A stretch of DNA of 64,000 bases from Amoebophrya sp. A120. Lineage: Eukaryota; Protista; Dinoflagellata. The stretch spans positions 212,722 to 276,721 of the forward strand of contig CAJINV010000023.1 of NCBI GenBank assembly GCA_905178155.1, written 5' to 3'. Of this stretch, positions 15,880 through 59,558 are shown in pieces; the stretch's first letter is position 1; each line of letters begins with the position of its first letter. A program made the translations under genes and the position numbers. A model generated the notes under the pieces. That model was not told the origin of the DNA and ran no database searches. It saw nothing but the letters and a program-made list of their open reading frames with translations.

Positions 15880-18800
15880 ATGGCCGCTCCTGCTCCAGAA
15901 AATGTGGAGCACCGGCAGCACTACACGCCGCGACAGCCCGGCAAGCCGCAACCCCTGCCCCAGACCCCCGGATCAGCTCGAAGCAACCGTGGAATTCTGA
16001 ATACCAACAGGATGATGCAGCTCGATCTCCCAGAGCAGGCTCTCCTAATGCTGGAGGAAATTGCCATAGAGCGGGACGAAGTCGAGCGACAGGCAGCAGG
16101 AGGTGCTCAACTACAAATAACTGGCGCGACGGCATCCTATAGTACTGGCGCCAACAAGATGGTAACTACATCTGCTGCCCCGACGAGCTCCTCCTCGCAC
16201 CTCGAATGGTTTGAGTCTCTCCTGAAGGAGTACCACGCCCGCTTGCACACCAAAGAGGGCAAGACCTTCACCAAGGTGACCGCACGGCTGAAGCATATCA
16301 AATGTAAAAATGTCTGGGTCTGGAAACTTGTGATGCCGTGTGGCGTATCATGAGGAGGCGACAATTGCTGGCTCAGCATGACAAGTTTCTGAGCTTCTAG
16401 GTGTTGCCTATTCTGCATGACAAACTACGTTTCTGCATGACAGAAAAGTGGGGCTCTTTGGTAATGTGCATGACAGATCTAAGAGTCATGCCAAACAAGC
16501 ATGACAAACTTGCATTCTTCCAGGCCCAGACATTCTTACATTTGATAAAGCAGTGGGAGAGACAGAAGTCGCTGGCCAGGCTGACCGGGGCGATCCGCAC
16601 GTATGAACTGCAAAAGTATCGTACTCGTATGAATGCATTACAAATTTCCTCAGCATGAGAAATAAGATCTGTAATGCGGATTTCCCTATAGGGAAAAGAT
16701 TTGTAATGCATGATTACAGTACAAGTGCGATAGTTTTGCACAGGATAGCACGGCCGGCGGTGCGACGTCGCGAACGCCCAGGAGTGGACGGCACAGCGTG
16801 AAGTCACAATCGAGCTTTTTCGCCTCGTCAGACAACGATGAAGATGCGCTTACCGAGGGAGCGGCTACCCCCGGGTCTGGCTATGACGAAGCAGGGGGAG
16901 AGGGAAAGCAGAAATACGCCGAAGCAATCCGCACTGAAAGTAAGAACAGCACCAAGCGCGAAGTCGAGCAGCTGCGCAAGGAGATTTCCTTATGGATGTG
17001 TCAGGATCGAAATCGACAAAATCGAAAAACTTGTGATGCATAAAATGTAGGGCACTGAAGGCCTGTATTGGGGAGCAGGCAAATGAGGGCGATTGTAAGC
17101 CTGTTTAGAGGTATACAATGTGCTGCCAGAGTAGCATGACAGAAGGAGTCTTCTTTGCCCGAACAGCATGACAGACTGGATTTGGGTGCTCCCAAAATTT
17201 GTCATGCGCCACTTGGAAACTGAGGCTCCAACTGACATCAATTTTTTGCATCACAAATTTTTCGATTTTGTCAATTTCGATTCTGACACTTCCACATTCC
17301 TTCGCTCTCTTTACACGTGGAGGTGTAGCCACTCCCATATCAAGTGCAAAAATGTCTGGGTCTGGAATAAAGTTGGAACTTGTAATGCTGGCCTTACATT
17401 CTTGTGAAATCTGTATTGCATGACCAACAAAACAAGCGGCAGCCTCTCTTGTCATACAAGAACGCAGTTTCTGATGCGGAATGCGTATGAGAAAGCGTTC
17501 TGCAAACTTGTCATGCCTTGCTGGATAAGAAAATGTTTCCATCATGCACATTTTAGCATCACAAATTTCCAGACCCAGACATTATATTTGCAATGCATAT
17601 CCCACCGCGGGTAGCAAAAACGCTGCAGGTGCTGGCGAAGCCGGAGGCGAAGTCCTCGACGGTTTGGATGGCGTCGTCCTGCACGAGGATTCAAAAGAGC
17701 TCAGCAATGCAGGAGGGACGAAAGCACAAATGGAAACGAAACCACCGCAAATGAACTTCTTCGCCCCGAAATTTACGAAGCGAGAAAAACTGACCGCGCT
17801 TGCCGCATTCCTGGTTTCCATCTTTGCAGTGGTGCTGATGTGCGTGTGGAAACCGCACCAGCCGAGCGAGGTCCTGCACACCACGCGACTATGCTCTGCA
17901 AAAGTTGCGAGTAAGTACCTGAAGAAGAAGATCGGACGGATTTTTGATGTAATTTTTATTCTCGCATCATGGCAAATCATCTCGTGGTCCCATACAACCC
18001 TTGTGTCGCTGTTTTATCCAACATTGCACTTCCGCACCCGCCGCACGTTCATCTTTCGACCATGAGATTAGTACAGTAGATCTACTTTGGCCTTGCGACA
18101 ATGATTATATTTGTCATGCAGTTATTCCACCTGACTGATGTTGGTCCTGGTGCTCCCTGCTCTCCTTTTGCGCTGCATACCGGCTGACGAAGTACAACTC
18201 TTTCATCACCAGTCCAGTCTACACCATTTCGGAGTCGCAGCCACTGGTTATGCCTTTGGAAGACCACAACAACCACGACTCCACCCACGTAGAGGTGATT
18301 GATTTGAAGATGTTTGCGGCCCAGCAGCCGCGGACCGACAGCGACTCGGTCAAGGAGAAGGTGCAATTATGAAATGCAAAAGCATCGTACTAGTATAAAT
18401 CGCATGACAAATTTCTTCAGCATGAGAAATCGCATTAGTAATGCGGATTTAACTTGAGAAAGAAATTTGTCATGCATATCTGCAATTAGTACGAGTAGTG
18501 CGATACTTTTGCAATTGATAGCAGTGGAAGATTTACAATTCCCTCAACGAGGTCGTAAAGTCTGGGAGCCTATCAAGTGTAAAAATGTCTGGGTCTGGAA
18601 GAATGCGCGACTTGTCATGCAGATTTTCCATGACCCATAAGGTGTTGAATGCAGGGCCTAGCATGACAGATTCCGCGCGATCTCTGTCATGCCTATCCTG
18701 CATGAGAAACTCCCTCCCGACTTGGTCAAAACTGGACGACTTTTGGTAATCATGCAACACAGATTTTCACATGCTTCAGATTTAGCATGACAAGTTGCGT

Positions 18801-21800
18801 TCTTCCAGACCCAGACATTTTTACGTTTGATAGAGCCTGCTGCTTTCGAAGGACGAAGAAGTGGAGTATTTCGAGACCCTCGATGTGGAAAGTCTCCATC
18901 CCGTCAAAGCCGAATTCACCCTTACGCGCGAGACGACAGCCGGCGTCGCCCTGACGGGACACACCGACTTTCTCGGGTTGAAAGTGCAACTCGTCTGCTT
19001 CACCTGGTTGGGCAAGTGGCGACTGTACTTCGCCGTGATTTTGTTCCTCGGCACCTTCGCGCTGATCATCTCAGAGGTTGTCCACCGTGTGTACGTCACC
19101 TTGGTCGCGGCCACGATCGGGTTGTTTCTGAACTCCGTGGTGCACGAACAAATTCACTTGAAAGAAACCATAGCGATGATTGACTTCGGAACCCTGCTAT
19201 CCACTGCAACAATATGTGTCTGGGTCTGAATTTGTGATGAGAGATCTGTTGAAGAACGCCAAGATCATCTGTGATGCAGGAATACGAGTGGTCAGCGTCA
19301 GTGTGTGATGTTGTGAAACTTTCCTCTACCTCCGTGTCTGTTTCATATGACTTTTCCGAATGCATCTGCAATAGGCCTCTCGGAAAATTTTTCATGCTGT
19401 TATGCAGTACAAGGACAAGCCGCTTTTACAACCTTTGCGTTGATGCGATCCGAGCTTCGGCAGCAGAAATTTCCAGACCCAGACAAATTTCCAAATCATA
19501 CCTGATGCTCCTCTTCTCCATGATGATCAATGTGAATTTCCTCGCGCAAACGGGCTTCTTTCAGTGGTTCAGCTATCCTGGTGCAAAAGTATCGTACTCG
19601 TACTTCAATAAAATCCCAGTCATGCAAGGCAAAGCTCTTTTCGAAGCTAAATCAGCATGACAAGAATTCAGTTTGTCGAGTTCAGTTTGTCATGCTCCTG
19701 AGCCAATTTGTATTGCAGTTTTTACTACGTAGTGCGATACTTTTGGGTTGCATATCATCGTGAAAATCGTCATTTTTTCGAAATGTGACGTACGCAAGCT
19801 GTTTTTCCTCCTTGCCAACATCACGGGCATACTCTCCGCTTTCCTCGACAACGTTACCGTCGTCATGCTGATGGGACCGCTCACTTTATCCTGTGTAGAA
19901 ACGACCTCGTGGTCTCCCTGTACTAGGTAGCAGATTTGGCATGATTACTTATGGCGATTCGCTACCATATTACCAAGACCAATTATGATGCGTCTCCTTA
20001 ACATTTTTCATTTTGAGTGGCATTTCCCCGCTCCGCGGAGCCAGACTTGTCGTGCAAACTTTGAAATATTAGCGCAACTCTATCTTGATTCGTGTAACGG
20101 CAGTCGCGTCTTGACCCTGGGGAGGTGAGGATGCTTCTACACAGGATACAAGTTCCAGCTGTGCAAAGCCTTTCGGAGGAATCCAAAGCCGTTCTATCTA
20201 GCGCAAGTCATCTGCGCGACTGTTGGTATTCAGTATGATCAAATATCTCCTGTTTACTTGGTCACTTTTGAAGGCTGCATTGGTATCTGTCGCGCCTGAA
20301 AATCGAAAAGGAAAAGATGACTGTGCTGGAAAACTAAGTAATCCTATTCCTAAAAGTCCGCAACTACACGACTGCAGGTGGCACCTCGACCCTGATAGGC
20401 GATCCCCCCAATATCGTTATCGGCTACAAGCTGAAGATATCAAATGCAAAAATGTCTGGGTCTGGAAGAGTACAAACTTGTGATGCGCATTTCAAGACAC
20501 AGAAAGATCTCTCTCTCATGCATAGTTAGCAAAAGCTGTCCAGTTTCTGCCACCAAGATGGGGCGACATTTGTCATGCGGATTCGGCATTGCGAAAGTTT
20601 CTCGAAACCCGTGATGCTAGAGCTCCCATGCCAGACCTTCTGTGTCATGCAAAAACAGCATGACTCTTCCAGACCCAGACATTTTTACATTTGATAGAAG
20701 GTTGGCTTCGTCGATTTCCTGATCTACAACGCCCCCCTGATCGTCGTTTTGCTTCCCCTGTCTAGTTATGAACTGCAAAAGTATCGTAATAGTAGTAATT
20801 GCAATACAAATTAGCTCAGCATGACAAATGGAATTTGTCATGCTGTTTTGCCTTGGGATGAAGATTTGTAATGCATGACTCCTGCGATTACTTACTACGA
20901 GTACGGTACTTTTGCACAGGATACTAGTTACCTGCTGTACCGCCAGTTCCGGGAGGAGATTCTTGCCGGAGATATTCCGAGTAAAAACATCCCCATCCCA
21001 GAGTTGTCATGCAAATTTGCATGCCAAAAAAGTTTCTCATGCGAAGCCCCATGAGAAGCTTTTTCTAGTCGTGTTTTGGGATTTGTGATGCTAGAAATAG
21101 CATGATATGCTAGATCTGTGATGCTGCTGAACTAGCTAAACAGGACTCCACTACGAGGACAAACTTGTCATGCGAGACAACCAAAGTTGGCCGATTTGTC
21201 TAGCAGATTTTCCACGTTGACTCTGGTATGGGGACGTTTTTACTCAGGATAGGAGAGCCGGATGACGAGGTAGAGGATCAGGATGATCTACGAAGAATAA
21301 ATTTGCAAGAACAGGATGAAAACCAAGCGAAGCCTCCGCAGCTTCAGCCAGATGGTGCCATGGCTCCTGCAAAACAAGCCGATGCGATCGTGGTGACCAC
21401 TGCAACGGAGGATGAGAAAGGCCATATGAAGATGAGCGTGCGCAACTTCCTATACCCCTATTTCCTCAGTCTTCATGTCCAAGTCCAGTGTAAGTGACCC
21501 TTGAGCAGCAACGGAAGCACTTGTAAGAACACTACGAACACCAGCTAGTAAGTATGTAGCCTGTGCATAACGTGACTACATGCGGTGACTGCAGTACGGT
21601 CTGCAAAAGATCGCGCAGGATAAAGTCACGATTTGCCTTTTTTTGCATGACGAATGAGAGGCACGAACAGGGGGTGGATTTTTGCGCCGTGATATGCCAA
21701 GAACCCCTGCAACTTCCAATAACGCAAAGAGATCACGCAACATCATCAAACATCGCCGACGCGGCCGACTCCAGAACCTCTCAGGAGGCTGTTGGGCAGC

Positions 21801-24800
21801 GAAGCACCCGGAGCAACGCGAGCTATTCGTCATCCGCTTCCTCGAACGGGGTGGTGTTTGTCGACTTGGAAAAACTCAAGCGCGACAACCGGATCACCGA
21901 TCACTACATGCTCCTCAAAGTCACTGCGGTGTTTGCGGGCATTTTCCTGGCCCTCTGCCTTTCTATCAAATGCAAACATGTCTGGGTCTGGAAGAATGCA
22001 AGGTTTGTCATGCTTGTCTGGCATGACTGAACAGTTTGTGATGGTGCGTGTCCAAGAAGAGACACTCGTGCGTGTCATGCAACAACGCAGTTTGTCATGC
22101 GGAAAGCGCGACACTAAGCAGCGCAGATATTTCTCATGCTTGGCTGTGCATTACAGAGTCTGCGCTATTCCCCACCCAGCATTACAAGTTTCCAGACCCC
22201 ATTTTGCAATGCATACTTTCCCCGGTGCACCAACAAGAGGCAGCGTGGTTCACGTTCTTGGGAATGCTGCTGCTGTGTTATCAAAAGGAAAAATCCCCCC
22301 CCCTACCGAAAACGAAACTTGTGTTGCTGTATTTGAGCTACACAAATTGACTTGTATTGCTAGAACGCCAAGAGACGCAGTTGTTCCCTCTTTTGCAGGC
22401 AATTTGTCATGCTGTCTGCTTTTCCAGTTGCCTCCTGTCATTCTGAAGACGCAAGGCTTTCCTACGCCACTCAGCACTACAGTCCGCTTCTTTTGCCTTC
22501 TAGCATGACAAAATGATTTGTGGTCTCAAATCATGCTACACAAATCGCCGTCTCAGTATGGGGAGAGGGGATTTTTCATTTTGATATGTGTTTTCTCCTC
22601 ACCAGTCACGAAATCCACCACGTTTTGGAGTCCGTGGAGTATCCTGAGTAAAAACGTACCCACGCCAGAGTTGTAATGCAGATACAGATTCGCAAAGACA
22701 GGAAGACTTGTAAAAATGCGCATCCCCATGATAGCCATTTCCAATTGTGTTTTGGAATTTGTGATGCTGTGAACAGGATGAGCAGCTGGATTTGTGACGC
22801 GGCTGCACTTGCTAGCCTGCACTACACTGCAGTGCGTTCAACTTGTCATGTGTGACTCACAAAACTCCTAGGTTTGTGTTGCAAAATCCTCATTTTGATT
22901 CTGCTGGTGTGGGTACGTTTTTACTCAGGATATGGAGTGGGACGTGCTCATGTTTTTCGCGTCCCTTTTCGTACTGGTCGAGTGTCTATGCATTGCAAAA
23001 GTGAAGTCGCACTGTGCGTCGATTGCAATTACAATTTTTTATTTCAAGAAGAAATTCGACGTAAGTTCCCACGCCAAATTGATCAGGTAGGAGGGTTACG
23101 TTATGAAACTTGTCATGCCCATAAATTGCAATTTATTACATCTTCAAATGCGATATATGAACTTTTGCAGCGGATAGCGTCTCGCCGAGCTCGGTTTGAT
23201 TCGACTAGTTGGCGAGTGCATTTCGAACGTGATCTCGTCCATCGATGACGAAAGCGCCCGACTTCCGGTGGCGATGCTGCTCATCCTCTGGGTGAGCTCG
23301 ATGGGCAGCGCGTTTTTGGAATCCCTGCCGTACACGACGACGATGTGCTACCTGCTGCTCGCGCTGAAGACGGAGGAGGACACAACGAATAAACTGGGCT
23401 TCGAGGTTATGCAATACAAATAATTTTCCGTACATGTACAAGCGGCATCACAAATTTCACCAGTTTGGAGTGCTGTAAGTAACACGACGATAATTAGCCA
23501 AGTCGCGTTTTTTGCGACTTGGCTAATTCGAATTTCCGGGCTGTTTGGCTACTCGGGCCTGTCCATAGACAGCTTCTGGGCTCTCGAATTAGCCAAGTCC
23601 GGGAGATACTTAGCCAAGTCGCGTTCTTTGCGACTTGGCTAATTCAAATTCCCGGGCTGTTTGGCTTCTCGGACCTGTCCATAGACAGCTTCTGGGCTCT
23701 CGAATTAGCCAAGTCTGGGAGATAATTAGCCAAGTCACGTTTTTTGCGACTTGGCTAATTCGCATTCCCAGGCTGTTTGGCTTCTCTGACCTGTCCATAG
23801 ACAGCTTCTGGGCTCTCGAATTAGCCAAGTCCGGGGGATAATTAGCCAAGTCGCGTTTTTTGCGACTTGGCTAATTCGCATTCCTGGGCTGTTTGGCTAC
23901 TGGGACCTGTCCATAGACAGCTTCTGGGCTCTCGAATTAGCCAAGTCCGGGAGATAATTAGCCAAGTCGCGTTTTTTGCGACTTGGCTAATTCGAGTTCC
24001 CGGGCTGTTTGGCTACTCGGACCTGTCCATAGACAGTTTCTGGGCTCTCGAATTAGCCAAGTCCGGGAGAATGTCATGCTAAACTAGGATCGAGCCCCAG
24101 TTTTGTCATGCAGAGATGGCATTTGTACGTCGTGTACGGGAAATTTACTGTGGATAGTGGTCGAAAACTTGTCCTACGCGCTCTCGGTTGGCGCTTGCAT
24201 CGGGGGGATCGGGAGCATCATGGGATCTAGCGTTATGCTGTGTGGAAAACCACTCAATTTGCAGCTTTTTTATCTTTGCTAGTACTAGATCGGCGTCGGC
24301 GTACTCGAGGGCAAAAAAACTTTGTCTTCATCATCATCAAGAATCTCGAACGCAATTTCTCACACTGAAATGACTCAGTCCCACATAGAGAGCCTCTGCT
24401 TCCAGGATCTGACTTGAGCATGTTCGTCGACGTCCTACAACGCCCACTTCTAATCTACGACTTTTGATAACCATTGCGCTTCCTTTAGAAGTTGTTTTCC
24501 GACAGCTCGTGCATACTTGCTAACCTCGTGGCGATGGGGATCTGCTCCAGGTACCTTCCTATCAAATGTAAGTAAAAATGTCTGGGTCTGAGAGAATGCA
24601 ACTTGTCATGCTAAATCTGAAGCATGCAAAAATCAGTGTTGCACGATTGCCAAAAGTCGTCCAGTTTTGACCAAGTCGGGGGGGAGTTTCTCATGCAGGA
24701 TAGGAATGAGAGAGATCGCACAGAATCTGTCATGCTAGGTCCTGCATTCCAGACCTCATGGGTCATGGAAAAGCTGCGCGACAAGTCGCGCATTCATCCA

Positions 24801-25013
24801 GGCCCAGACATTTTTGCTCTTCCCTGTGCTGTACCATGGTCTTGCTTCCAGACAAAACACCAGACATTTTTGCACTTGATACTTCCCGCAGACGCCCCCC
24901 TGCACCACAAGATCCAGGGCAAGGACTTTTTGAAGTACGGCTTTCCCGTGTTGCTGATCTTGACGGCGGTCAGCTCGGTGTACCAGTATGTGATTTTTTC
25001 AGTGGTGCAGTAA
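15880..25013 (+). CDS. OCA2/P-protein-like membrane transporter (ArsB/NhaD/CitMHS ion-transporter superfamily), 23 exons, about 1032 aa
   Basis: Manual splice. Exons with element plus downstream TSD removed: 15880-16295, 16553-16601, 16753-16990, 17302-17337, 17605-17889, 18185-18367, 18526-18570, 18838-19197, 19506-19573, 19760-19886, 20154-20225, 20378-20437, 20702-20766, 20929-20972, 21257-21424, 21700-21963, 22221-22278, 22592-22639, 22938-22986, 23182-23407, 24162-24233, 24521-24559, 24887-25013. Total 3099 nt, open frame, TAA stop. P-protein-like motifs: SEVVHR, IDFGTL(M/L)LLFSMM, LSAFLDNVT, VGGTSTLIGDPPNIVI, VEWDVLMFFASLFVL, YALSVGACIGGIGSIMGSSANLV, FLKYGFP. Exact junctions can slide within the TSDs. 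Confidence 0.88.
16296..16547. mobile_element. Introner family A (P-protein intron 1)
   Basis: TSD aagca. Confidence 0.9.
16602..16747. mobile_element. Introner family B, reverse orientation (intron 2)
   Basis: tatgaactgcaaaag...ttttgcacaggata; TSD gcacg. Confidence 0.9.
16991..17296. mobile_element. Introner with long TIR (intron 3)
   Basis: tatggatgtgtcaggatcgaaatcgacaaaatcgaaaaa / tttttcgattttgtcaatttcgattctgacacttccaca; TSD ttcct. Confidence 0.9.
17338..17599. mobile_element. Introner family A (intron 4)
   Basis: TSD tccca. Confidence 0.9.
17890..18179. mobile_element. Degenerate introner (intron 5)
   Basis: tatgctctgcaaaag / cttttgcgctgcata; TSD gcgac/ccggc; frame restored. Confidence 0.75.
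18368..18520. mobile_element. Introner family B (intron 6)
   Basis: TSD gcaat/gcagt. Confidence 0.85.
18571..18832. mobile_element. Introner family A (intron 7)
   Basis: TSD gagcc; inverse copy of 24560-24881; same orientation as 59819-60094. Confidence 0.9.
19198..19500. mobile_element. Introner family A-like (intron 8)
   Basis: TSD cctgc/cctga. Confidence 0.85.
19574..19754. mobile_element. Introner family B (intron 9)
   Basis: TSD tcagc/tcatc. Confidence 0.85.
19887..20148. mobile_element. Introner (intron 10)
   Basis: Perfect 14-bp TIR tatcctgtgtagaa / ttctacacaggata; TSD cactt/caagt. Confidence 0.85.
20226..20377 (+). other. Canonical GT-AG intron (P-protein intron 11)
   Basis: gtattc...ctgcag; joins TVG-GTSTLIGDPPN in frame; no TIR. 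Confidence 0.8.
20438..20696. mobile_element. Introner family A (intron 12)
   Basis: TSD gaaga/gaagg; inverse-orientation relative of 7747-8001. Confidence 0.9.
20767..20923. mobile_element. Introner family B, reverse orientation (intron 13)
   Basis: TSD ctagt. Confidence 0.9.
20973..21251. mobile_element. Introner family D (intron 14)
   Basis: TSD ggaga. Confidence 0.9.
21425..21694. mobile_element. Degenerate introner (intron 15)
   Basis: tatg...gata ends with residual gcgcaa..acccc / ggggt..ttgcgc IR; TSD ggcca/tgcca; frame restored. Confidence 0.65.
21964..22215. mobile_element. Introner family A (intron 16)
   Basis: TSD ctttc. Confidence 0.9.
22279..22586. mobile_element. Introner family C (intron 17)
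   Basis: TSD tgtgt. Confidence 0.9.
22640..22932. mobile_element. Introner family D (intron 18)
   Basis: tatcctgagtaaaaacgtacccac / gtgggtacgtttttactcaggata; TSD tggag. Confidence 0.92.
22987..23176. mobile_element. Introner family B-like (intron 19)
   Basis: TSD gtgtc/gcgtc. Confidence 0.85.
23408..24156. mobile_element. Introner containing a tandem array (intron 20)
   Basis: tatgcaatac..ttttccgtaca / tgtacgggaaatt..ggata; TSD gaggt/gtggt. Confidence 0.8.
23490..24069. repeat. 5 x 116-bp tandem repeat with internal hairpin
   Basis: Units start at 23490, 23606, 23722, 23838 and 23954. Consensus includes aattagccaagtcgc-gtttttt-gcgacttggctaatt. Confidence 0.95.
24234..24515. mobile_element. 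Degenerate introner (intron 21)
   Basis: tatgctgtgtggaaaac / gttttccgacagctcgtgcata; TSD agcgt/cttgc; restores GSSANLV. Confidence 0.75.
24560..24881. mobile_element. Introner family A (intron 22)
   Basis: TSD cttcc; partly duplicated right TIR. Confidence 0.9.
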
Positions 25014-26168: not shown

Positions 26169-27597
26169 ATGGCGAATTTCCTTGTGCCGGCGCTGCTCAA
26201 CAAGAAGGGCAGTGACCCGGAAGACGACGTGAGATACCGAAATCAAAACAGAAGGCTGAGGACCGACAAGCACACGGAGTCGGCGCCGGTCTTTCTTCCA
26301 TCATCAGACGAAAATGGATCTTCATCCGCGACCTCGAGCTACACTGGCGGTGGGCGCGCCGGTGGGGCACTGCTAGATCGAGGAGCAGGAGCAGCGCCGG
26401 GTAAAAGCAATATGCGAAGCAGCGGCAGTCAGAACTACCGAATAGGAGGTGGGAGCAAACACCTCTACCCCGTGCCGGAAACCCCGAATATGAAGATACC
26501 GTCGCCAGTATCAACCGGAATTAAAGTGTTAAAACGTTGAGAACTCGGAATATGTGATGCGATAAAACATTCAAAACCAAAAGCAAAAGGATGAAGAATT
26601 ATAGTACACTGTCACTGATATTTGTATTGCTGAGCACCCATGATGAAAGGAAAAATCTGTCATGCGTGATCGTACTTACATAGTGAAAGCATCAAAACCG
26701 TGAACGTTAAAACACCTTTGCGAGTGATAGCTGGCAAAAAGGGTAGATCTGGACGCGCACCAGAAGTGGATGCAGTATGCGGAGCCACCATATCCTGTGC
26801 AAAAGTATCGTACTCGTATTGCAATCATGCATTACAAATTTTCTTGTTAAGTCAAATCCGCATTACAAATTTTGTTTCTCATGCTGAGACAATTTGTCAT
26901 GCATTTATACGAGTACGATACTATTGCAGTTCATACACCACGTATAAAACCAATATGTGAAGAGGAGGACAGAAGTTTGATGGTTTTCTTGTTGCAGCTG
27001 CATGACAAATCGCTGTTCTGTTGCTGTTTCCTTTGTGTTTGTTATTCTATCTATCGATAAAGTGATCTTATCACACTACAGAGGGCCACTTCCCCCACCC
27101 CACGAAAGCGAACGAGAAAGGCTTGCCGTTTTCTCCGACCAAAAACGCGAGGGACCACCTCAAGCACCCGAGTTCCCCCTACCGAGATCAGCCCCCACTA
27201 CCCGACCATTTCCTCAAGCCCTGCTCCAACACCTCCCCGATTCTCTACAACTGCTTTCACAAAAAGGACACCACAGACGTGTACGAGTGGCAACAGCGCG
27301 AGTTTAATTGGTTCGTCGAGGCGCAGCATAAGTTCAACCAGGAAGTCAAGCACTTGCTAAACCCCAACTCAAACTGCCGCGCACCGAAAAATATCCTGTG
27401 CAAAAGTATCGCACTCGTAGTAATCGCAAACATGCATTACAAAGCGTGCTCTTAAGGTAAACCCGCATTATTTGTCGTGCTGAGGAAATTTGTAATGCAT
27501 TTATACGAGTGCGAAACTTTTGCACTGCATAAAAAACTACATGCACGCGACCACGTACAGATTTTTGCTACTCCTGCATGATCGCGCTTTGCTTTAG
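26169..27597 (+). CDS. Hypothetical protein, about 255 aa, 3 introners plus 1 GT-AG intron
   Basis: Exons 26169-26508, 26735-26790, micro-exon at 26941, 27082-27391 and 27537-27597 give 768 nt of open frame. No recognisable domain. The 3' end is uncertain. Confidence 0.55.
26509..26729. mobile_element. Degenerate introner
   Basis: tatca..gtgttaaaacgtt / aacgttaaaacac..tgata; TSD gccag/gctgg. Confidence 0.7.
26791..26935. mobile_element. Introner family B
   Basis: TSD cacca. Confidence 0.9.
27392..27531. mobile_element. Introner family B
   Basis: TSD aaaaa. Confidence 0.85.
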
Positions 27598-27662: not shown

Positions 27663-29380
27663 CACGGCGCAACATCCTCGGCCTCTAAAGATATCCCCGT
27701 TGCATTCGGAACGCAAAGAAAGGCTTTCCACATGTTATCACCTCTCGGCACTCGCCTAGCGGAGGGTTGGCGGAGGGCAAGTTGCAGTCGATCAGATCCA
27801 GAATTAGCTGGGTGGAGTAGTAAAAGCGCAAAGTGCTTACTTTTTGACAGCAGATGTCGTTTATTCTTAAACTTCTTCTACCAGGGCGGTACTGCGATTC
27901 TGCATGTGCCGTCTACACCCTCCGCCACCCCTCCGCAGTTGCTCAGCATGTTCCTCATAGCGTGCTGAATTTTGAAAAAATGCAAAACCGACAAAAAAGC
28001 GAAAAACAAAAGGAAAAACCCATAAAAAGCTTTTCAGCATGCTATCACCTCTTGACAGTCGCGTAGCGGAGGGTGGGCGGAGGGCAAGTTGGAGTCAAAT
28101 AGACCCAGCATCAGCTGCGGATAACACTAAAAGTGCAAAGTGCTTACTTTTTGACAACAGATGCCATTTATTCTTAAACTTCTTCTACCAGGGCGGTACT
28201 GCGATTCTGCATGTGCCGTCTACACCCTCCGCTACCCCTCCGCAGTTGCTCAGCATGTTCCTCATAGCATGCTGAATTTTGAAAAAATGCAAAACCGACA
28301 AAAAAGCGAAAAACAAAAGCAAAAACCCATAAAAAGCTTTTCAGCATGGTATCACCTCTCGACACTCGCGTAGCGGAGGGTGGGCGGAGGGCAAGTTGCA
28401 GTCAAATAGACCCAGCATCAGCTGCGGATAAAACTAAAAGCGCGAAGTGCTTACTTTTTGACAGCAGATGCCATTTATTCTTAAACTTCTGCCAGCAGGA
28501 CGGCACTGCGATTCTGCGTGTGCCGTTTACACCCTCCGCTACCCCTCCGCAGTTGCTGGGCATGTTCCTCGTAGCATGCTGAATTTTGGAAAATTGCAAA
28601 ACCGACAAAAAAAACGAAAAACTAAAGTAAAAACACATAAAGAGCTTTTCAGCATGGTGTCACCTCTTGACACTCGCGTAGCGGAGGGTGGGCGGAGGGC
28701 AAGTTGCAGTCGAATAGACCCAGCATCAGCTGCGGATAGTACTAAAAGTGCAAAGTGCTTACTTTTTAACAGCAGATGTCTTTTACTCTCAAACTTCTGC
28801 TACCAGGACGGCACTGCGATTCTGCATGTGCCGTCTACACCCTCCGCTCCCCCTCCGCAGTTGCTGGTCATGTTCCTCATAGCGTGCTGAATTTGGAGAA
28901 CTTGCAAAACCGACAAAAAAGCGAAAAACAAAAGTAAAAACACAACAAGAGCTTTTCAGCATGGTGCCACTTCTTGACAATCGCCTAGCGGAGGGGTGGC
29001 GGAGGGCAAGTTGCAGTCGATTAGATCCAGAATTAGCTGCGGATAGTACTAAAACTTCAAAGTGCTTGCTTTTTGGCAGCAGATGCCATTCATCATTAAA
29101 CTTCTGCAACCAGGACGGCACTGCGATTCTGCATGTGCCGTCTACACCCTCCGCTACCCCTCCGCAGTTGTTGGGCATGTTTCTCATAGCATGCTAAAAT
29201 TTGAAAACTTGCGAAACCGACAAAAAAGCGAAGAACAAAAGTAAAAATACACAAAAAGCTTCACGGCATGGCAACACCTCTTGGCACTCGCCTAGCGGAG
29301 GAGGGGCGGAGGGCGAGTTGCAGTCGATTAGACCCAGAATTGATAGCTGCGGATAGTACTAAAAGTGCAAAGTGCTTACG
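27663..29380. repeat. About 307-bp satellite array 1 (about 5.4 units) with a unique head
   Basis: Unit markers recur near 27731, 28038, 28345, 28653, 28960 and 29267. Confidence 0.92.
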
Positions 29381-39800: not shown

Positions 39801-39939
39801 GGCTGAATTGCGACTCCTCGTCGTGCACTGGAGTGCATGGGCACGCGTCTTCATGTTCTCTTTCTTTGTATGCCCGTCGCATTTGCAGGGCACGAGAGTC
39901 ATTTTGGAACATCGATAGCGCTGTTGATTTTCTACGTGA

Positions 39940-41291
39940 TTGCCGTACTGGCGGGCGTCTTCGTGGCAGCGCGTCTTCTCGCTGTGCGACAACGACTGCA
40001 GCGCGCAAATCAAGGAACAGTACGACAAGAGGATGGCCGAAATCGCAGATGACTTCTCGGTTCTGAATCACGACTACCTAATGGAAAAGGAGCTGCTCGC
40101 GAACTACGGGCTTCTCGAAGTCCGCTTCCTAGCAACGGGCGAGTTTCACGTCTACCTGGACGGGGAAATGCTGGGCAACCTGCGGGACTTGCGGTACTCT
40201 GACCTGTCCGTTGGCGCTATCGACGAAAAGTGGCCCGAGTTCGGAATGCAGCAGTTAAATGTCGACATCTTCAACCTCGCCGGCATCGAGCATCGACGTG
40301 GCTTCGACCCGGACCCGCATGGAGCAACATCGATGCCGGGGGAATCTGGCGGAAAACGGTACCTCACCTGCCAGCCAAGACACGAAACCCCGTCCCCTGC
40401 CAAGCAGTTCCGACTGCCCGGAAAGTCCTGGATCCAGCAGGGCAGGAACGAAGTGCAACACTCGGCGTTCTTTGAGAAGGACTGCGTCCAAAGTAGCTTG
40501 GCGACGTGGTGCCGGGCTGCAAACAAGAGTCTTGCCCAGCAGTACCGCCGTGGTTTGTCCGCGACGCCACTGTTAACGGAGAAGATGGAAACCTGTCCCT
40601 TCGTGAATCAGTACTACACGGAGCAAGAAGTGCGGCGAGCTCGCATTGAGCACGGGTATCCTGTGCAAAAGTATCGTACTCGGAAAACCTGCATCAACTA
40701 TGTTGCGCCGTAAGAAGAAGTTTTCTCATAATTCTCTAATTTGTTTTATCCTGGTCTAGCATGAAAGTTCCACAGACAGGCTACGTGTTTTGCACAAGTA
40801 TTTCGCGATGGATTTCTTCTTGACTTCGGATGCTATTTGTTGTACTAGGACTAGAAACTACGAGGAAGACGAATCTTTTGCAGTGCATACCATTCGGGCG
40901 ACGGCCAAAATCTTGGACGACTTGGAACCGCAGAGCGACTGGCTATTTTCGTCGAAATTCGGCATGGAGTGCAACCACCCGTACATACTGTTGACGCGTC
41001 AGCCCCCGGCTTCTACCGAGGACGAGCACCACACGATGAGCATCATGGCGTGCCTTACCCCCGAATCCAACCTACTGACCGTCAACGCGCTTACGAAGGA
41101 ACGGTTTGACGCGGAGTGTCGTCGGCGCCGCGAGTATGTGGCGGATCTGTTGAACGCGCACACGATGCAGTGGACCCCGGCGTTTCAGGGGCCCCGCCTG
41201 GATCCGGTCCGCGACGGGATCACCGAGGAAGACGTGCGCATCTTCAATGCCGACCTGCTATCCATGGTAAAGACGCGTGCACCGACTCAAC
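39940..41291 (+). CDS. Hypothetical protein or pseudogene exons (partial)
   Basis: GC-rich ORFs 39940-40656 and 40895-41291 join in frame when the element 40657-40889 plus 5 nt is removed. Ends unresolved. Confidence 0.4.
40657..40889. mobile_element. Degenerate introner family B
   Basis: tatcctgtgcaaaagtatcg / cttttgcagtgcata. The TSD is eroded (acggg/ccatt), but a 5-nt offset restores the frame. Confidence 0.6.
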
Positions 41292-42608
41292 TATTCCGAT
41301 TCTTTCTGTGGCGGAACACCCATTCCCATAGCATTAATTGCAACTGGACAACTTCATTGCAACACTTCTGGTTCTGCATAAAAACTGAAATGACAATTAG
41401 GAAAGTCGCATGTAGACGTGGAAGGCTTTTCTGGGTTGCGTAAGTATTACGTTCGCGTTGCAGACGAGCATAGAGGGTTGCTTTTCATCCTTTCTGCCAT
41501 GAAACGTTCTTTGCTTTGTGCAGACCGCTGCGAAAAGTATACCGTAGCAGAAACGAATGGATAAGATGATCATGCACCTATTTGACCATGGATATCCAAA
41601 CGCACAGTATCCATAAAAAGAATTCAAAACTCGATGCTAATCATTGACACAAAGTGGGTATTTCATTCAAGCCACACAAAGGCCTAGTGATACATAAGCG
41701 AACCCGAATAAAGCATCATTGTTCATTATTCGAACATATAGAAATTTCTGTTTTCTCAGCCTACGGCTTCATGTAGAGCGGGCAAAAATCCGAAGCTGGT
41801 GTGGAAATGATATGAATAATTTACAACTTTGTGTGGCAATGAACGCCCTGGGTTGGTGATATCTTTCTGACACGATAAGCAGCAAGCTGACCTGCAAAAT
41901 TTGAACGGCCCGCGCGAGTGGGAAGTAATTGCTGCGGGTGCCGGGGTCGACGCAAACAATCTGGTGTTGGTGAATCATCTGCTGGACAACGACTTGCTAG
42001 CCATGGACGTCGGCGACCATGGCGCCGTCGAAAATGGAGTGCACGAACTCTAGATCATCTGCTGCAACGAAGGAAGACCAAAACGCGGGCGTCTACGACT
42101 GCATCATGACGAGAAGTATAGGTATAGCTGACACTTTTGATATCATTTATCTGCACGAACTCGATGCTGATGTAAAAGGATAAGGAATAGGAAGTGACTC
42201 ATCTGATATATAGATACATCTGCATTTCTTTGTAGCTGCTCGCATGGTATTGGAACGGATGAGGACTGGTGATGACTCCGTCGCAAGTAGTTGCTTCTTG
42301 CATGATAGTGATGCAGTAGATGCCGTGGCTGTGCGCCGCATGGTTTTTTTTGTTGTTTTCGTAATTGTACCTATACGAGATTAATACCGTACGAACCGAA
42401 AACAGATCCGTTGCCGCTCCTTTCGCAAGTTGTAAAGGATCATGTACCTACGTACCATGAAAAAACTCGCTTGTGAATTTTCGCCACGACGCCATTGCCG
42501 GATGGTTCTTCGCGGCAGAGCTTACAGTAGTGCAGAGGAAGAGTTTTCGACGTCGAGCTCCTGGACAGTATGCCAAAATTGGGCATCCTATCATAATCTC
42601 GTTATCAG

Positions 42609-42954
42609 TATCAAGTGCAAGTATTTCCGGGTTTGGAAAGATGTCGAGTCTGTAATGCAGCTTTTGCATTTGCCCCCCGGCCCCGTCAGGTCACGTAGAA
42701 GATCCGGTTCCGGAGTATGCATCGTAGGTTTTACGTTACGTCTGTGAGGTAGTGTTATATTAGCGCCACACGTTCTTTCGGTTTTACGAGGGCCACGTAG
42801 TCCTTACTCCGCATGAGAAACAAGCTCACTACTCGCCTAGCAGCAGAAGAGTGATTTCTGCTTCTTCTTGTCGCGCAAGATAGATTTTTTTCTGACTGAG
42901 AGAGGGCTTCACAAGTTTGCATCCTTCCAGAGCCGGACACGTTTGCCGTGAATA
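42609..42954. mobile_element. Degenerate family A element
   Basis: tatcaagtgcaagtatttccgggtttggaa / ttccagagccggacac; TSD not clear. Confidence 0.5.
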
Positions 42955-45380
42955 TATGCCTATTGAGTTGACAACATTGTTAAAATCTTTTGTGGCATTT
43001 CTTGTCATAGTTTTGATTTTGTTTCTCGTTTCAGTTTCAGTTTCAATTTGCTTGTTTGTCCTCGGACCAGAACATTGCCAATCAGATCGAACCAGAACAG
43101 CAATCCAATCTCTGTCGTACTAAATGTACCCCCTCGTCTACTTGTAAGATACAGTTACAGCCCACCTGTTGTCAGATCAGTACAGAAACTTATTTCGTGG
43201 AATTTCATGTGTTGCGCCAAATAATCTTAATCTGCCGGCAGAGTTTTCTACTTTGCATCCGCCACAACGCGGCAGCTGCCCATGAACGAAAAATGACAAC
43301 GAGCCTGACTTTGAAAATCGTAGCCCCCCCTAAATATAGCAATTCGCAATTTTGTATGATCAATTGTTCGATTCCGCTTGTTGCTGTAGAGATACCTCGC
43401 TTTGTCCTTGTCGACCAACGCCCTCTGATATCCAATGCAAATGTGCCTGGACTTCGGCTTGCAGCGAAGGGAAAGAATACAATCCACGACCCTGGGTTTC
43501 AGTTCTAGCAAAAGCCAAGTGCCAGGTTTGGTATAGGTTGATTTTTGCATCTAGAACACCAACAACCACGTTCCATCTTTGTATCTAGACTGAGGGCCAA
43601 TTCCAAAAACGTGCTCGTCCTCGCATTTCTAACAGACTTTCAGCATGGCGAAGGAAGTTCATGATATCACAGATACATGCTTAAGAGAAGCGTACAGCAC
43701 TAGGTTCACAACTGTGAGCAGAGCCGGGCAAGAAAGTCCAAGGCATGTTTGCAATGCATAGCAGAGGCCTTGCAATCGTCAGAATACGGCGCTACTTCTG
43801 GATTGCCTTTGCTTAGAAATATGAATATCTTCTTGCATCTACAATTACCAAAATTCGAAATGCAACTGTACTTACGTGCTGATTTGCAGCAAAGAAGTAG
43901 CTTGATTTTGATATTTTGCAAGGCAGATAGCTGGATGATGGATTGAAATCGATGTCTGTGCTAGCAGTAGTAACTCCACCCCTTTACATAGTGACAGAAC
44001 TATTGCGCTACGCAATCAAATGACAGCTGCAATGTTCACGCAAAGCAAACAGGAATCCGCTTTGCTCGATGTAAGATAAAATGTATCACACGGCTTTGTG
44101 ACGTCCTCTTTTGCTGTACTTCAAGCGCAAGCCCTGCCACTGCTACTCGAATGATCCGCAGGGAAACGAAAAATACAAATCCTAGATGTGTATTTGATGT
44201 TGGTCGTGGCTCTTTGCCTCTAGTGCGTTGATTTTCAATCGCCAATAGCCGCTTCTTGCTATCTGCCCACAGAAAGGAGAATAGCTACGAAATAAGAGGA
44301 TAGCAAAATCTTCGCTCGGTGCGGCTGTCCGACAGCGGGCGCAGAATGTGATCGCAAGTTGCACACACCTCGACGCGTGATAGCTTCTTAATGCAGGCCC
44401 CGCAAGCTCTATGCGGAACTGCTCCCGGCACAGCTTGGCCGCTGTTTATTGAAGGCTCCCCGGCCTCTGTTTATGTAGGCCCGGCGGAGGAAAATCCGCG
44501 CTGCCCGCATTCGGGCATCACAATCCAAAAATGTGCCACGAAACTTAAACCGCGAAAAACTAAAGGGCAGGACAAAACAACGAACGACAAACGCTTAGAA
44601 GTTGCGCAACAACCCTACTTCATCTTTCCGCGGGCGGAAAGGGGAGGGAGGGGGTGCCCTCCACCTGCTTCGGATTTTTGGCCAGCACAAAGAACCGAAC
44701 TGAGGTCGCTTCTGCGGAAGAGGTTGGGGGGGCACTCCCCCCGTCCCCCGACCGGTGGAAAGGGGTAGGGCTGTTGCACAGCTTCAGCGACAAAATGAGC
44801 GCAAACCCTTCGCGTCATGCTGCTTGCCCTCTACTTGCGGCGCAGCTGCGATTGCCCAGATGAATAAGGCTACGGCAGACCCAAAGATACTGCCGAACGC
44901 CGACCGCGCTAGCTCCTTTGTGCTATTGGCGCCACCACTCAACAAAGCCAAAGCAAAAAAAAATGCATTGCATGAAATCGCCACTGCTTTGGTTCTCTAG
45001 CCAGCACTGCGGATCATCTTGAGACGTGGATGGCGTACGTGCTTCGATATTAAACTTTAGAAATACAGACGTCAGTGGCAGTGCAGTGCTCAAGGGAAGC
45101 GAACAGTGTCTGTGTTCAAGTACAACCAAAATACATGGATAATGGTGACGTGGCCTTTGGCTATTTTACACTCGTGTGACGGTTCGTGTTTGCGTTATTC
45201 TTTGTGGTGCTTTGTGCCTTTTCCATATTTTGGTTGTGCAACGTTGTTGTTACAGCACAGCTCCAGGCGGATCCACATTTTAGTTTTACACGACACAGGA
45301 GATATTACAACAAGTGTAGGACTGTGTCCTGGTCCTTCGAACGGGATATAATCCAAAAAGTCCAAATAGCGTTGCCATCA

Positions 45381-45650: not shown

Positions 45651-47950
45651 TGTTGCCGTCGGCGCCAGCTTCGCGTTTTTTGCGGTAAACTTGAGTTCCA
45701 CAATTCGTCTACCGAAGCCGCCGCTCTGTTTCTTTCCACGAGTCAGTGGCCAGTGTCAATAGGGGACTGGAATTTTCCGGACGAACTCCAGTCGGCGTGT
45801 CTGGCGGGAGGAGCCAAAACCGATCGAGCCTTCACACGCGCAATGGGGGTCTCCAGGCTCTTCCATAATTTACTGGCCGCTTTCATACGGAACAATCAAG
45901 CAGAGTATTGATAGCGCACTTTCAACATTGAAGATGGCGCGGCGACCTACTTATCCCGACTAGCCCATCGAATGGGGCGGGTGCAAAGAACTGCTGTTGA
46001 AGCTTGTATGTAATTCGATATATTGCATGGCTCTTAATCTTATCTTTTTCCATGGTTTGTACTGCAGCGCGGACAAGTAGGAGAAGCAAGTAGCATGATA
46101 TATGTGCTCTTCGAATGGCCGAACCCGAAGGGCAAATTTGATTTGTCATGCCGCTCGTCTCCAGGAATGACATTACTTGGCGCCCCCTCGCTGCTCTGGG
46201 TGGGCAGAAAGATGTTTTAGCTCGGTATCTACCCGTGCCCGAACAAACCGGTTTTCCAATAGAATACATTAATAGCCTGCAGCACCACCAATACTCTGTG
46301 CATGCATAATGTGGCGATGCAGACCTCTTGTCTTTTATCGTTCTGCTGTTATGTTTGTGACATTACAGATACAGTTCTCGTCTGTGCCTGCGATTGTGCA
46401 GCGTTGTCCAGATGATGAGTCTCGACTTACTTGCAGCGCATTGGCCTCAATTTGCTAGTGTTTAATCATGTAGGAAAGGCAGAACCGCGTGCGCCACCGT
46501 CAGGGCCTCGCGATTCTGAGCCATCTGTGCTAGCGTATGAGCAGGATTTCCTCCTTGCGCAAATTTTTGGAAAAAATAGAAATAGAGTAAAACAGGATGT
46601 CGTCTATTGACAGTTTGTCTCTAATTCAACTCATGTTGAGTAGTGTTTTTATTTCATCCTGTAAGCATAAGCTGCAGCTGCTTATAGGATGAAATAAAAA
46701 CGAGCAGCTCTAACAAAGCCGAGACACTTCTTGCGTGCTACAGCTGAGAACGTCACATCTGAAAACCCATACTCCATCATTGTGCTTGTCGCTGCTTCGG
46801 TTCTGGGTTCGCTTTTGGGTCAGGCTCTGGGATATGGCAAGTTCCTCAGAAATCATTCGGCGGAGGACAGGAATCTCAGCTATCATATCCCCCATGATGA
46901 TTCCATTTGCAAATACTTTTTAAAAAAGCTGCTTGACGTGATTGGCTTTAGCGTGGTCCCGCCGTCCTCTTGCAATTTTTCCATCTATTCGCGGAGCCAT
47001 GAACGTCAGCGACAGTGTTGGCGCGACACGACATGAAAATCATCAACAAGAAACAGCGTATCACTCTCGCTGAAGATAGCTGAGTACTTATTCTCCGTTC
47101 TGATTCTGCATTTGATTTCTATAAGGGGCCGTGCTGCCTTTCTTCTTGCGCAAAGTATTGCAGATGCAACGCGCGCGCAAGTCGGGACGCTTCTTCCAGC
47201 GAAGAGAATGCTGCGCTGCGCGATAGCGATCGACGTCCTAATGCACTGCAACTCCTAAATGGGGCAACGAGCAACCTGGGTATCAGAGTGAAAACAAAAG
47301 CGAACTTACCCCAGAAGAAAGAGGCAACTGAAGAGGGGCGGAAAATGTATATTCAAGAATAGCACTCTCTCCATCTTGCGCAATGCAATAATGGTATGAC
47401 TCATGAAAATAACACGACCACCACCCAATGCAAATTCCAATTTGGCATTCGCAGTAAAGATTCAAATTTTGAAGATGGGAAAACTAGTATCATGACATAT
47501 TGAGTTATATTTTAAATTATTTGTGGAGGTAAAAATCGTTGCGTTTTGCACACAAACCGAAGTACCCCTCGGTCATGATGTGTCATGTTTCATCTACATA
47601 GTTCTCCTAGCATCGAGTTCGAAACAGAAAAAGAAAAACTTTGCAAGATTGTGATACAGAGAATTTGCAGTTGAAGCCTGAAACGCCTAAGTACGCTAGA
47701 AGTGTAACAGCTTTATTGCTGTAATCTGTAGTGAAAGTAGAGGCATTCTGGGGTCAGCGCGACTGTTTTCCTGCTGATATGGGAGGACAATGCGTCGAGC
47801 CGCGTCCTTGCAGCCGCGGCTCCTCCTCCTGGCAAACAACGCCTGACGGACATCCAGCAGGAGCACGAGAACAGCAGTGGTTCCGGTGAGACATCCACTC
47901 CTGAGGACCCATACGCAGTTCTTCTGGATCTCCAAAAGCAGCTGTCGGAT

Positions 47951-48260: not shown

Positions 48261-48410
48261 TATGAACTGCAATAATATCGTACTCGTATAAGTGCATGGC
48301 AAACTTTCTCAGCATGACAAATAAAGTTTGTATATGCGGACTTTCTTCAAGAAGAAAATTTGTCATGCATGAATGCAATTACTACGACTATGGTACTGTT
48401 GCACAGGATA
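48261..48410. mobile_element. Introner family B, reverse orientation
   Basis: TSD ggcgg/ggtgg. Confidence 0.85.
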
Positions 48411-57690: not shown

Positions 57691-59558
57691 TGCACTGTTT
57701 GCTTTGGAATATTCGCAAACGACCGAAAAAAATCTAAAAAGAGCAGCAAGCACGGCACTGTGCATCTCAAACGGCGCAGCGGAGGGCTTCTCTTGTTGTA
57801 ACAGTGGGGATTGCAATGCTTGTGCATGTCATGATGTCATAGTGTAGTAACCTGTTGCGCCCGCTCTCTGGTTGCGGCGCAGTGTGCTCGAGAACCGCGG
57901 GAAGGAGTACGCGAGCTACTCTCCGGGCAAATTCGTATTCTGCCCTGAACCAAACAACGGCTTGTTAACAAGGACTGCGCCTAGTGCACGATATGGCGGA
58001 GGCAGAGGACATCTTGGACAAAGTGTGGGCCTTCGCTTGCCATGTGTTTCCAGTGCTCTTCGTCGCGATCATCTATGGCGCTGTCAAGCGTTACCCTGTC
58101 CCTGATCGCTTTTGTGCGGTTTTTGCTTGGTAGGTTTGCCATGCAATATCAGCAGAAGCAAGCTGGGCTCAGGAATGTTGAATAGTGCAAGATGATTAGC
58201 AGGTGCGAACTCTGTTTGCGCGGTTTGTGATGGAAGATTGAATGGCATAAGGAAGCAGAAGTGTAGACTCTCTGTGTGACAAGTTTAGCATGGATCTCTG
58301 ATGTGCTGTTCAGCGCAAAATAGGTAGCTCTAGCTTGATCGTGCGTGCAAAATGTCAAAAAAGATTCTGTGTGAAAGATCAATAAAGAAGCCAGCACCCG
58401 CACCCCCAGCGATCAATATAACGCTTGAAAGCACCATAGTTTCCTCCTGCATGATGTGGCAACCTTGTCGTGGTCCTGGGACCTCCTGGGAAGCATCTTC
58501 CTCTTGGCGTGTGGAGTCGCGCACCTGTATCTTATCGAACGCACATACTGGCTAGAGCTTTTATTCATGTGCAAACGCTCCTTAACCCGTAAGTAGAGTG
58601 GCTGCATGTTCGCGACTTCTTTCAGAGAGTCTACTTTCGCACCAAGCCGTGTCCCCATCTGTCAGGCTTTAATGAACAGTCGCACAGCCAATCAGATAGA
58701 AGGGCTGGCGTCTCTTTGACAACTGCCGGTATGGCACAACCCCGCTCGAAGTGAGCTTGATGCGATCCAGCACCAGATGCTGCAGTGTTGTAGTGAACGA
58801 AGAGCACGCAAGAAACTTACACCCGACGTTTCGCCGCTTCGCAATCTTCCCACATTCTCGCGGGGTAAGAAAAGTTGCGCTGAATAACGGGAGTGCAGGA
58901 ACGTAGTTTGTGATCTCCCGCGCAAGGATTTGCAGAAGCTTCACACCGCGACGAAAACTCGGGAGTCGCAGAAACCAAAACAGGACAGCCGGGAAACAAT
59001 CGTCGAGAGCATCATTGAGCACGTCGCGCCGGCAGTTTCTACAGCAGCAGCTGGTCTTTGCCGTTCGCTTCGCTGGAGTGGGTTGCTAACAGGACTTTTT
59101 TTTGGTCTGGCTGCCCGGCCGTTGCTCAACTTTGTCGTTTTCGTCGCTGTAGCGTGGCTGCAGGCCTCCGACGATGTGCCGCCAGCGACAGGGGGCGCTG
59201 GAACCAACTCCACTAACTATTTCCGCTATTTCGATGGGGAGTTTGGTAAGCTGCATATCGGATTAAACAGCAGTACCCGCTCACGGTGTCGAAAAGCTGC
59301 GAAGTACGGTTGTATGTGGCGTAGAGTCACTGGCCTGCGTTTTATTGCGAGAAGATTAAGTAGGATAAACAAAGATTTCTTATGCGTTGCCAAAGTTTAC
59401 GTGGACTCGGACTGTTCTTGCATTTCCTATAATGCTTTCTCTTGTATCACAAACAGGCAAAAGATATGGCGTAATTGACAACAGAACAACTGGCTATTTT
59501 GTTCTGGCAATGCCACGCCTTCGTGCGGGAAGCTTCATAATACCCAACGGCGCTCTCA

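Follow-up and report, generated by a model that had tools for sequence, protein, structure and literature searches.

Transposon-derived introns in an Amoebophrya sp. A120 transporter gene share one cut register with a conserved U at position +2

Amoebophrya sp. A120 carries 29,850 copies of introner elements, described by Farhat et al. (2021, PMC7789003) as bearing inverted repeats (IRs) of TAT, seven variable bases and at least three As, with direct repeats over the intron borders, in genes that mix them with canonical introns; many have since been classed as DNA transposons with terminal inverted repeats (TIRs) (Gozashti et al. 2025, PMC12130899). Here we analyse a 64,000-nucleotide stretch of A120 DNA (contig CAJINV010000023.1, positions 212,722 to 276,721, forward strand; hereafter the window), in which a membrane-transporter gene is interrupted by 21 such elements and a single GT-AG intron. 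The elements and the gene model are already public, and the feature is a known one rediscovered, because the encoded protein agrees residue for residue with one already annotated in A120, and the elements bear the signature published for that strain; an earlier note on this DNA had mentioned introners of this kind in Amoebophrya and understated how close the link is. We describe a fixed cut register shared by these introns, within which the base at +2 is invariably U, and weigh the mechanisms that could read it. The register replaces variable borders with a single rule that can be tested on tens of thousands of introns, points to U+2 as the base to alter and to the vicinity of −7 for a possible branch, and separates spliceosome, stem-nuclease and DNA models. 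The passages of the literature consulted contain neither a fixed register with invariant U+2 nor lariat data for Amoebophrya, and figures 3, 4 and S19–S25 of PMC7789003 may show part of this.

The likeness to the introners of Farhat et al. (PMC7789003) extends to the strain, the TAT repeat followed by As, the border repeats, the mixed genes, RNA-supported removal and the grouping into families. As in that account, a direct repeat (3–5 nt there) overlaps the exon border, the ends are not GT-AG and families recur; here, by contrast, the repeat is uniformly 5 bp with the cut inside it, and there is a single register with an invariant T at +2, consistent with Table S4 of that paper. The A120 TIR families of Gozashti et al. 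(PMC12130899) agree in length (about 150, 250–260 and 300 bp), in tens of introns per gene and in an unassigned superfamily. They differ in that, within the 22 of 58 A120 rows covered, the automated calls mix mechanisms, give target-site duplications (TSDs) of 2–5 and define no single register. In strain AT5, introns are reported to be canonical.

Two more distant systems are instructive. Nonconventional introns of euglenids and hemistasiids (PMC11282704, PMC11170887, PMC12621601) likewise lack GT-AG ends, carry TSD-like repeats and occur alongside canonical introns, and they pair at their termini, as is strongly predicted for young copies here. The euglenid stem joins CAG at +4 to +6 with CTG at −8 to −6 and yields circular products (PMC11282704), whereas in the Amoebophrya elements TAT at +2 to +4 faces ATA at −7 to −5 and U+2 is kept; the CAG/CTG pairing is absent from the position tables of our 42 supported introns. 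Introns of Fritillaria borealis (PMC11282704 section 6; PMC13326754) are also TIR- and TSD-derived, and their adapted U2 spliceosome is a precedent for the mechanism favoured here. They prefer AG-AC and AG-AT ends and have a conserved U1, whereas in Amoebophrya positions +1, −2 and −1 are free and U1 small nuclear RNA (snRNA) is undetected.

The transporter gene and its elements

15880..25013, plus strand: CitMHS membrane-transporter gene; 23 exons, coding sequence of 3099 nt, 1032 amino acids; PF03600; ArsB/NhaD/P-protein-like

Excision of the 21 elements, each with five extra bases, yields 3099 nt in a single stop-free frame encoding 1032 amino acids, as the earlier note had derived by removing each element plus one TSD copy. 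The CitMHS profile PF03600 matches this model over positions 1–336 of 336 (E = 2.8e-67; 227.7 bits against a cut-off of 31.9). Matches to the DASS, ArsB and NhaD profiles are weaker, each below its own cut-off; VcINDY-type structures match at E = 2e-8, MamN is the best named model with a score under the cut-off, and the P-protein label comes from the earlier, sequence-only note. A single-exon query among 963 candidate proteins returned two matches: P0001 from Amoebophrya sp. A120 (1032 amino acids, 100% over the query), to which the full transporter model is identical, and P0002 from A25 (1067 amino acids). Any single one of the 22 introns, if left in, truncates the protein.

All 21 elements bounded by TAT…ATA (element 3 alone ends in ACA) and the sole GT-AG intron lie where they had been placed. 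The 5-bp direct repeats reported with them are present, perfect in only 11 and reduced to 4/5 in seven, 3/5 in two and 1/5 in one, and TIR identity ranges from 6/20 to 20/20. At a threshold of TIR at least 12/20 plus repeat at least 4/5, the real region holds 15 pairs compared with 0–1 per shuffle in 30 dinucleotide shuffles. Canonical U2-type ends are lacking: 2/21 elements start with GT, 5/21 end with AG and none does both. The earlier note had said that most elements lack GT-AG; in fact all 21 do, and moving both ends together by anything between −3 and +8 bases yields neither GT-AG nor GC-AG. Removing the element plus two, five or eight bases is stop-free throughout in 19/21, so that the removed length is not set by frame alone; it is fixed by the transcript-like contigs.

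A fixed cut register

We define k as the number of left-repeat bases retained in the exon, a quantity that is informative only where the two repeat copies differ; perfect-repeat elements were therefore left out of the count. A value of k = 4 is allowed in 30 of the 30 informative introns, compared with 17 for k = 3, 13 for k = 5 and at most eight for lower k, and 10 introns are pinned exactly. The table behind these counts was compiled by hand, with two rows taken from the protein and eight from piece ends, loose ends or intervening letters, and the inner TIR served to place the end of the element in two decayed introns that finish in AGC. The intron is thus N-TAT…ATA-NNNN: wherever the cuts can be placed, the first precedes TAT by one base and the second follows ATA by four. 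When six uniform models are compared with P0001, that with k = 4 alone is identical and the rest differ at 1–6 residues; the P0001 annotation was probably RNA-guided and is to that extent not independent of the transcripts. Elements 6 and 9 are one family in opposite orientations, and neither allows a k below 4; the polarity of the cut therefore comes from the transcript and is not built into the element. Joints without slack in the stretch 39500–59400 also sit at k = 4. Neither decay of the repeat, nor the coding frame, nor the orientation of the element alters the register.

The introns of the transporter, with coordinates in the fixed register, are as follows.

16295..16551, plus strand: intron 1; element 16296-16547, repeat AAGCA/AAGCA; from contig spacing
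16601..16751, plus strand: intron 2; element 16602-16747, family of about 150 bp, GCACG/GCACG
16990..17300, plus strand: intron 3; element 16991-17296, ends ACA, TTCCT/TTCCT
17337..17603, plus strand: intron 4; element 17338-17599, TCCCA/TCCCA
17889..18183, plus strand: intron 5; element 17890-18179, GCGAC/CCGGC; joint 17888-18184; k at least 4
18367..18524, plus strand: intron 6; element 18368-18520, GCAAT/GCAGT; contig piece end 18366; k at least 4
18570..18836, plus strand: intron 7; element 18571-18832, GAGCC/GAGCC
19197..19504, plus strand: intron 8; element 19198-19500, CCTGC/CCTGA; k no higher than 4; folding predicts no terminal stem
19573..19758, plus strand: intron 9; element 19574-19754, TCAGC/TCATC; reversed relative to element 6; k at least 4 (public protein)
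19886..20152, plus strand: intron 10; element 19887-20148, CACTT/CAAGT; k at least 3 (public protein)
20226..20377, plus strand: the sole GT-AG intron, GTATTC…ACTGCAG
20437..20700, plus strand: intron at element 11 (20438-20696), GAAGA/GAAGG; contig joint; k at most 4
20766..20927, plus strand: intron at element 12 (20767-20923), CTAGT/CTAGT; contig joint
20972..21255, plus strand: intron at element 13 (20973-21251), GGAGA/GGAGA; contig joint
21424..21698, plus strand: intron at element 14 (21425-21694), GGCCA/TGCCA, decayed TIR; contig joint
21963..22219, plus strand: intron at element 15 (21964-22215), CTTTC/CTTTC; contig joint
22278..22590, plus strand: intron at element 16 (22279-22586), TGTGT/TGTGT; contig joint
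22639..22936, plus strand: intron at element 17 (22640-22932), TGGAG/TGGAG, perfect 20-bp TIR; contig joint
22986..23180, plus strand: intron at element 18 (22987-23176), GTGTC/GCGTC; contig joint
23407..24160, plus strand: intron at element 19 (23408-24156), GAGGT/GTGGT; five 116-bp tandem repeats inside; contig joint
24233..24519, plus strand: intron at element 20 (24234-24515), AGCGT/CTTGC (1/5); joint 24231-24519; k = 3 or 4
24559..24885, plus strand: intron at element 21 (24560-24881), CTTCC/CTTCC; reversed, 90% like element 7; contig joint

Supporting introns elsewhere in the window are pinned exactly to the same register.

40656..40893, plus strand: intron of another gene; pinned by contig joint
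41258..41598, plus strand: intron followed by the 8-nt micro-exon 41599-41606
42608..42958, plus strand: intron of the 3′ untranslated region, past the stop codon; repeat 0/5
46349..46775, plus strand: intron with repeat 0/5 and predicted end-to-end pairing of 0.0
58561..58890, plus strand: intron with predicted end-to-end pairing of 0.09

Several further observations belong to this part of the window. Micro-exons of 8–10 nt between neighbouring elements (41599–41606, about 50895–50903, and 51163–51172) are joined precisely in transcript-like contigs. An 866-bp element at 51173–52038 has TTA…TAA ends, the A25-type triplet, with a perfect ACAAG repeat; it is skipped in contigs and has T at +2 under k = 4 and k = 5 alike. 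The old 1098-nt intron at 52366–53463 carries two nested younger TAT…ATA elements, 52400–52788 and 53123–53425.

Probable removal at the level of RNA

Evidence for removal comes from contigs of transcript-like sequencing runs (X4–X7), whose RNA status is a guess and which derive from one sample. Contigs of X4 and X6 lie on the transporter exons and contain no other letters. Among the 15 transporter joints listed of 42, 13 correspond to the GT-AG intron and elements 5 and 11–21, and two are repeat-born; the spacing of contig pieces is consistent with exact removal of elements 1–7, and one single contig joins over the GT-AG intron and elements 11–21. These joints and spacings, and the lack of elements in the transcript-like contigs, support the proposal of the earlier note that the elements are removed precisely and in the same transcript as a spliceosomal intron. 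That note had also named retention of the elements, or recourse to cryptic GT-AG sites, as outcomes that would refute the proposal. The contigs do not retain the elements; cryptic GT-AG or GC-AG use was considered and rejected, as there is none in any equal shift and the contigs fit the model of element removal.

The earlier note had left open a removal of DNA akin to that of internal eliminated sequences, in some life stage, so that the element-free contigs would represent such DNA or its transcripts. The guessed RNA status of X4–X7 and the comparison with a single DNA-like sample leave some room for this explanation, and X1, the DNA-like run in question, is possibly the sample from which the window was built, while contigs lose rare variants. 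Over 39500–59400, however, X1 has a flat depth near 26 and contigs colinear with the window, and none of the 15 joints listed (of 25) for that stretch, in effect no element-free allele, appears in this one sample; all 15 are in three transcript-like runs, which are without cover on silent stretches of the same region. X1 holds 0.69 of the sampled words of the transporter, above the exon share of about 0.34. The element-free contigs skip GT-AG introns too, and an asymmetric cut, made in a two-fold symmetric element regardless of its orientation, also argues against excision from DNA, which we regard as very improbable. Two raw RNA runs, X9 and X10, contributed 63 and 8 reads, every one a partial match to the end of an element, and none falls on an exon. 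Removal most likely occurs on RNA.

Conserved bases within the register

Aligned in the register, the 42 supported introns show an even mixture at +1 (A10 C11 G10 T11), T at +2 and A at +3 in all 42, and T37 C5 at +4; on the 3′ side, A occupies −7 in 42, T occupies −6 in 38 and A occupies −5 in 38, with the last two bases free. Both transcript-confirmed GT-AG introns (2/2) begin GTAT. The set was enlarged from two sources. The upstream gene at 6630–10468, whose model equals the public protein P0004 (728 amino acids, with a weak PAP2 match below the cut-off), contains six elements. In addition, one TIR pattern led to 149 loci in another assembly of the metagenome collection (hereafter the second genome), of which 148 were analysed and none shares unique sequence with the window; a codon model, with 22/22 confident calls right in cross-validation, oriented 163 of 288 elements there.

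In the pooled set of 48 window introns (the 42 and the six of the P0004 gene) and 163 second-genome elements, changes from T-A-T number zero at +2 compared with eight at its mirror position −5 (binomial p = 0.008), two at +3 compared with eight at −6 (p = 0.11) and six at +4 compared with three at −7 (p = 0.5). Some window elements came from a TAT scan, which favours T at +2, a bias that affects neither of the two complete genes, nor the joints ranked by depth, nor the scan of the second genome. The invariant U+2 is the only firm conservation result, and it means that the canonical U at this position is retained. Table S4 of PMC7789003 agrees with this register, its nine top A120 motifs all being NT-NN and its nine top A25 motifs all TT-NN (A25 IRs start with TTA), although the text of the same paper reports no clear signature and variable borders.

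At other positions the signals are slight. There is a mild excess of AG as the last two bases, 18/163 compared with 7–11 at other repeat positions. The A at −7, which is also the TIR end, may be a candidate branch point; a strict branch A there was rejected, because its presence in 42/42 of the first set is weakened by three G exceptions and there is no +4/−7 asymmetry. A drift of old introns to G at +1 was likewise set aside, with exon and intron copies at 8 versus 10 of 42 and G+1 at 51/163 compared with 49 in antisense.

Terminal stems and the mechanism of removal

According to the earlier note, the cut is guided by a base-paired terminal stem rather than by splice dinucleotides. This is only partly borne out: GT and AG are unused, but one letter of the splice signal, U+2 (usually with A+3), is retained on one side only, and four older introns with next to no predicted stem are spliced. 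Predicted end-to-end pairing is at least 0.8 in 9/21 transporter elements and at most 0.09 in 4/42 supported introns. These four are the intron of element 8 and those that begin at 46349, 52366 and 58561, the last three pinned exactly to the register. The change of T to C at +4 is uncompensated at −7 in 5/5 window cases. Tracts of A at +12 to +14 and of T at −15 to −17 persist in 30–35 of 42, also where the stem is weak. The stem appears real in young copies, as it would from any TIR, and the folding predictions do not indicate that it sets the cut.

These data bear directly on a non-spliceosomal endonuclease and ligase, either like that of transfer RNA splicing or as proposed for euglenid nonconventional introns, which would recognize the terminal hairpin and cut with a fixed stagger, one base beyond the stem at the 5′ side and four beyond it at the 3′ side. 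Such a system would account for the strong end-to-end stems of young elements (z-scores, estimated roughly with 12 shuffles per element, reach −22), for the fixed offset from the TIR ends and for the dispensability of both GT and AG; U1 snRNA is undetected in A120 or A25 (PMC7789003 section 10), and there are precedents in euglenids, with circular products (PMC11282704 section 6), and in diplonemids. We nevertheless consider it unlikely, given the four spliced introns with next to no predicted pairing (folding predictions can miss weak stems), the five uncompensated changes at +4 and the one-sided conservation of the terminal triplet at the 5′ U, a pattern that a sequence-reading nuclease could still produce.

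A protein that binds the TIR motifs, such as a transposase that has been domesticated or a novel subunit of a small nuclear ribonucleoprotein, could instead mark both ends on RNA or DNA and direct a spliceosome or nuclease, with pairing and classical signals secondary. The persistence of the A- and T-tracts under weak stems is consistent with this idea, which would also explain a ruler-like 3′ cut, and a divergent protein subunit was suggested by Farhat et al. (PMC7789003). No such protein came to light, no search having been aimed at it, and T-tracts near 3′ ends are equally explicable as ordinary pyrimidine tracts; we judge a guide of this kind improbable.

We infer, with a probability of roughly 0.55, that the elements are removed by a relaxed U2-type spliceosome that reads nUA at the 5′ end and measures the 3′ end. 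In the yeast P complex, U+2 pairs with A51 of U6, G−1 pairs with G+1 and A−2 contacts the branch A (bioRxiv 10.1101/212811); by analogy, the elements seem to keep the base that faces U6 and to drop the mutual contacts of the intron ends. The proposed spliceosome would grip U+2 (and A+3) by way of U6, do without the G+1:G−1 and A−2 contacts, and measure off the 3′ cut from the end of the element. Because both element ends read TAT, either orientation would present a 5′ end of nUAU, resembling the GUAU of the two GT-AG introns. Less securely, the hairpin might draw the two ends of young copies together and so aid their removal, perhaps replacing U1 snRNA, and the A at −7 might serve as the branch point. 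The machinery is largely in place, with 83 of 89 spliceosomal proteins and the U2, U4, U5 and U6 snRNAs found in A120 (PMC7789003).

A stricter version, in which the spliceosome would need only nUA at the 5′ site and a ruler from the transposon end for the 3′ cut, with neither G+1 nor AG, is put forward tentatively, at somewhat less than even odds. Were it so, the apparent 'huge variety' of splice sites would come down to a single rule overlaid by random duplication of target sites, and any transposon ending in TAT or TTA would be a perfect intron in either orientation and at any site.

Several points weigh against removal by a relaxed spliceosome. In the P complex, G+1 and AG are central to exon ligation (bioRxiv 10.1101/212811) and would have to be dispensable here, and the strong stems predicted in 9/21 elements would mask the 5′ site and any branch A. 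A preset rule of U+2, A+3 and A−7 was concordant in only 8/12 cases on the second genome (p = 0.39), in elements that are without transcript support and take their strand from the codon model. Position −7 is G in the element at 9030–9364, which ends GTA and whose in-frame removal matches P0004, and in two second-genome elements. Among the A120 families in Dataset S2 of PMC12130899 there are introns that start with GC or GA (44/331 in fam12), which may reflect annotation sliding inside the repeat. The contigs come from one sample and are RNA by guess, with 30 joints listed of 67. If the spliceosomal reading is correct, exon ligation would be possible without the G+1:G−1 and AG contacts thought to underlie the GT-AG rule, and the low-cost spread of transposons through genes would be accounted for.

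Origin and spread of the elements

The two copies of a duplicated stretch, a filled site at 5143–5306 and an empty site near 27190, agree at 90 of 92 bases once the element and one repeat copy are subtracted. In the second genome, with no repeat filter applied, the 5-bp repeat is perfect in 182 of 239 elements, and repeats of length 2–4 and 6–9 are near chance. Insertion duplicates exactly five bases, and removal of the element plus five restores the exon. With TIRs and a TSD of fixed length, the elements have the traits of TIR DNA transposons that are non-autonomous (miniature inverted-repeat transposable elements). Copies within the window are 66–90% identical to one another and up to 96% identical to copies in the second genome; across 74 element ends, A occurs at TIR positions 11–14 in 63, 61, 67 and 56. 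The longest Met-started frame inside the 42 elements has 125 amino acids, a length that suggests that there is no internal transposase. One TIR pattern, used to look for an autonomous partner, gave no match in viral contigs, and no orthologous locus was confirmed among 53 pattern matches in metagenomes.

Among the internal exons of the transporter, 13 of 21 span 36–73 nt and none is shorter, for which random placements give less than 1 in 20000 and 0.002, respectively. Element spacing in the second genome likewise peaks at 30–90 nt, and the most frequent element length is 130–170 bp. The pattern may reflect local hopping or chromatin spacing.

Genes dense in such elements are also seen in the second genome. 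One locus (L062, 7643 bases) contains a minus-strand gene that carries 13 or more such elements. When the register was tested by protein homology on a minus-strand gene of this genome, no homologue was found, and the codon model is the one basis for the strand flip. Another locus (L072) contains a gene with five, putatively calpain-like on visual inspection. In the window, 4860–5670 is a patchwork of captured exon fragments (copies of about 7340–7400 and of 27158–27249), in which elements occupy sites where the source copies have none.

Other features of the window

The segment 12515–12813 is a 97% copy of 20039–20334, where the transporter runs from the end of element 10 through one exon and into its GT-AG intron. 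Satellite arrays with units of 307–308 bp, in 4–7 copies each, occupy 27719–29379, 31999–34075 and 56457–57647.

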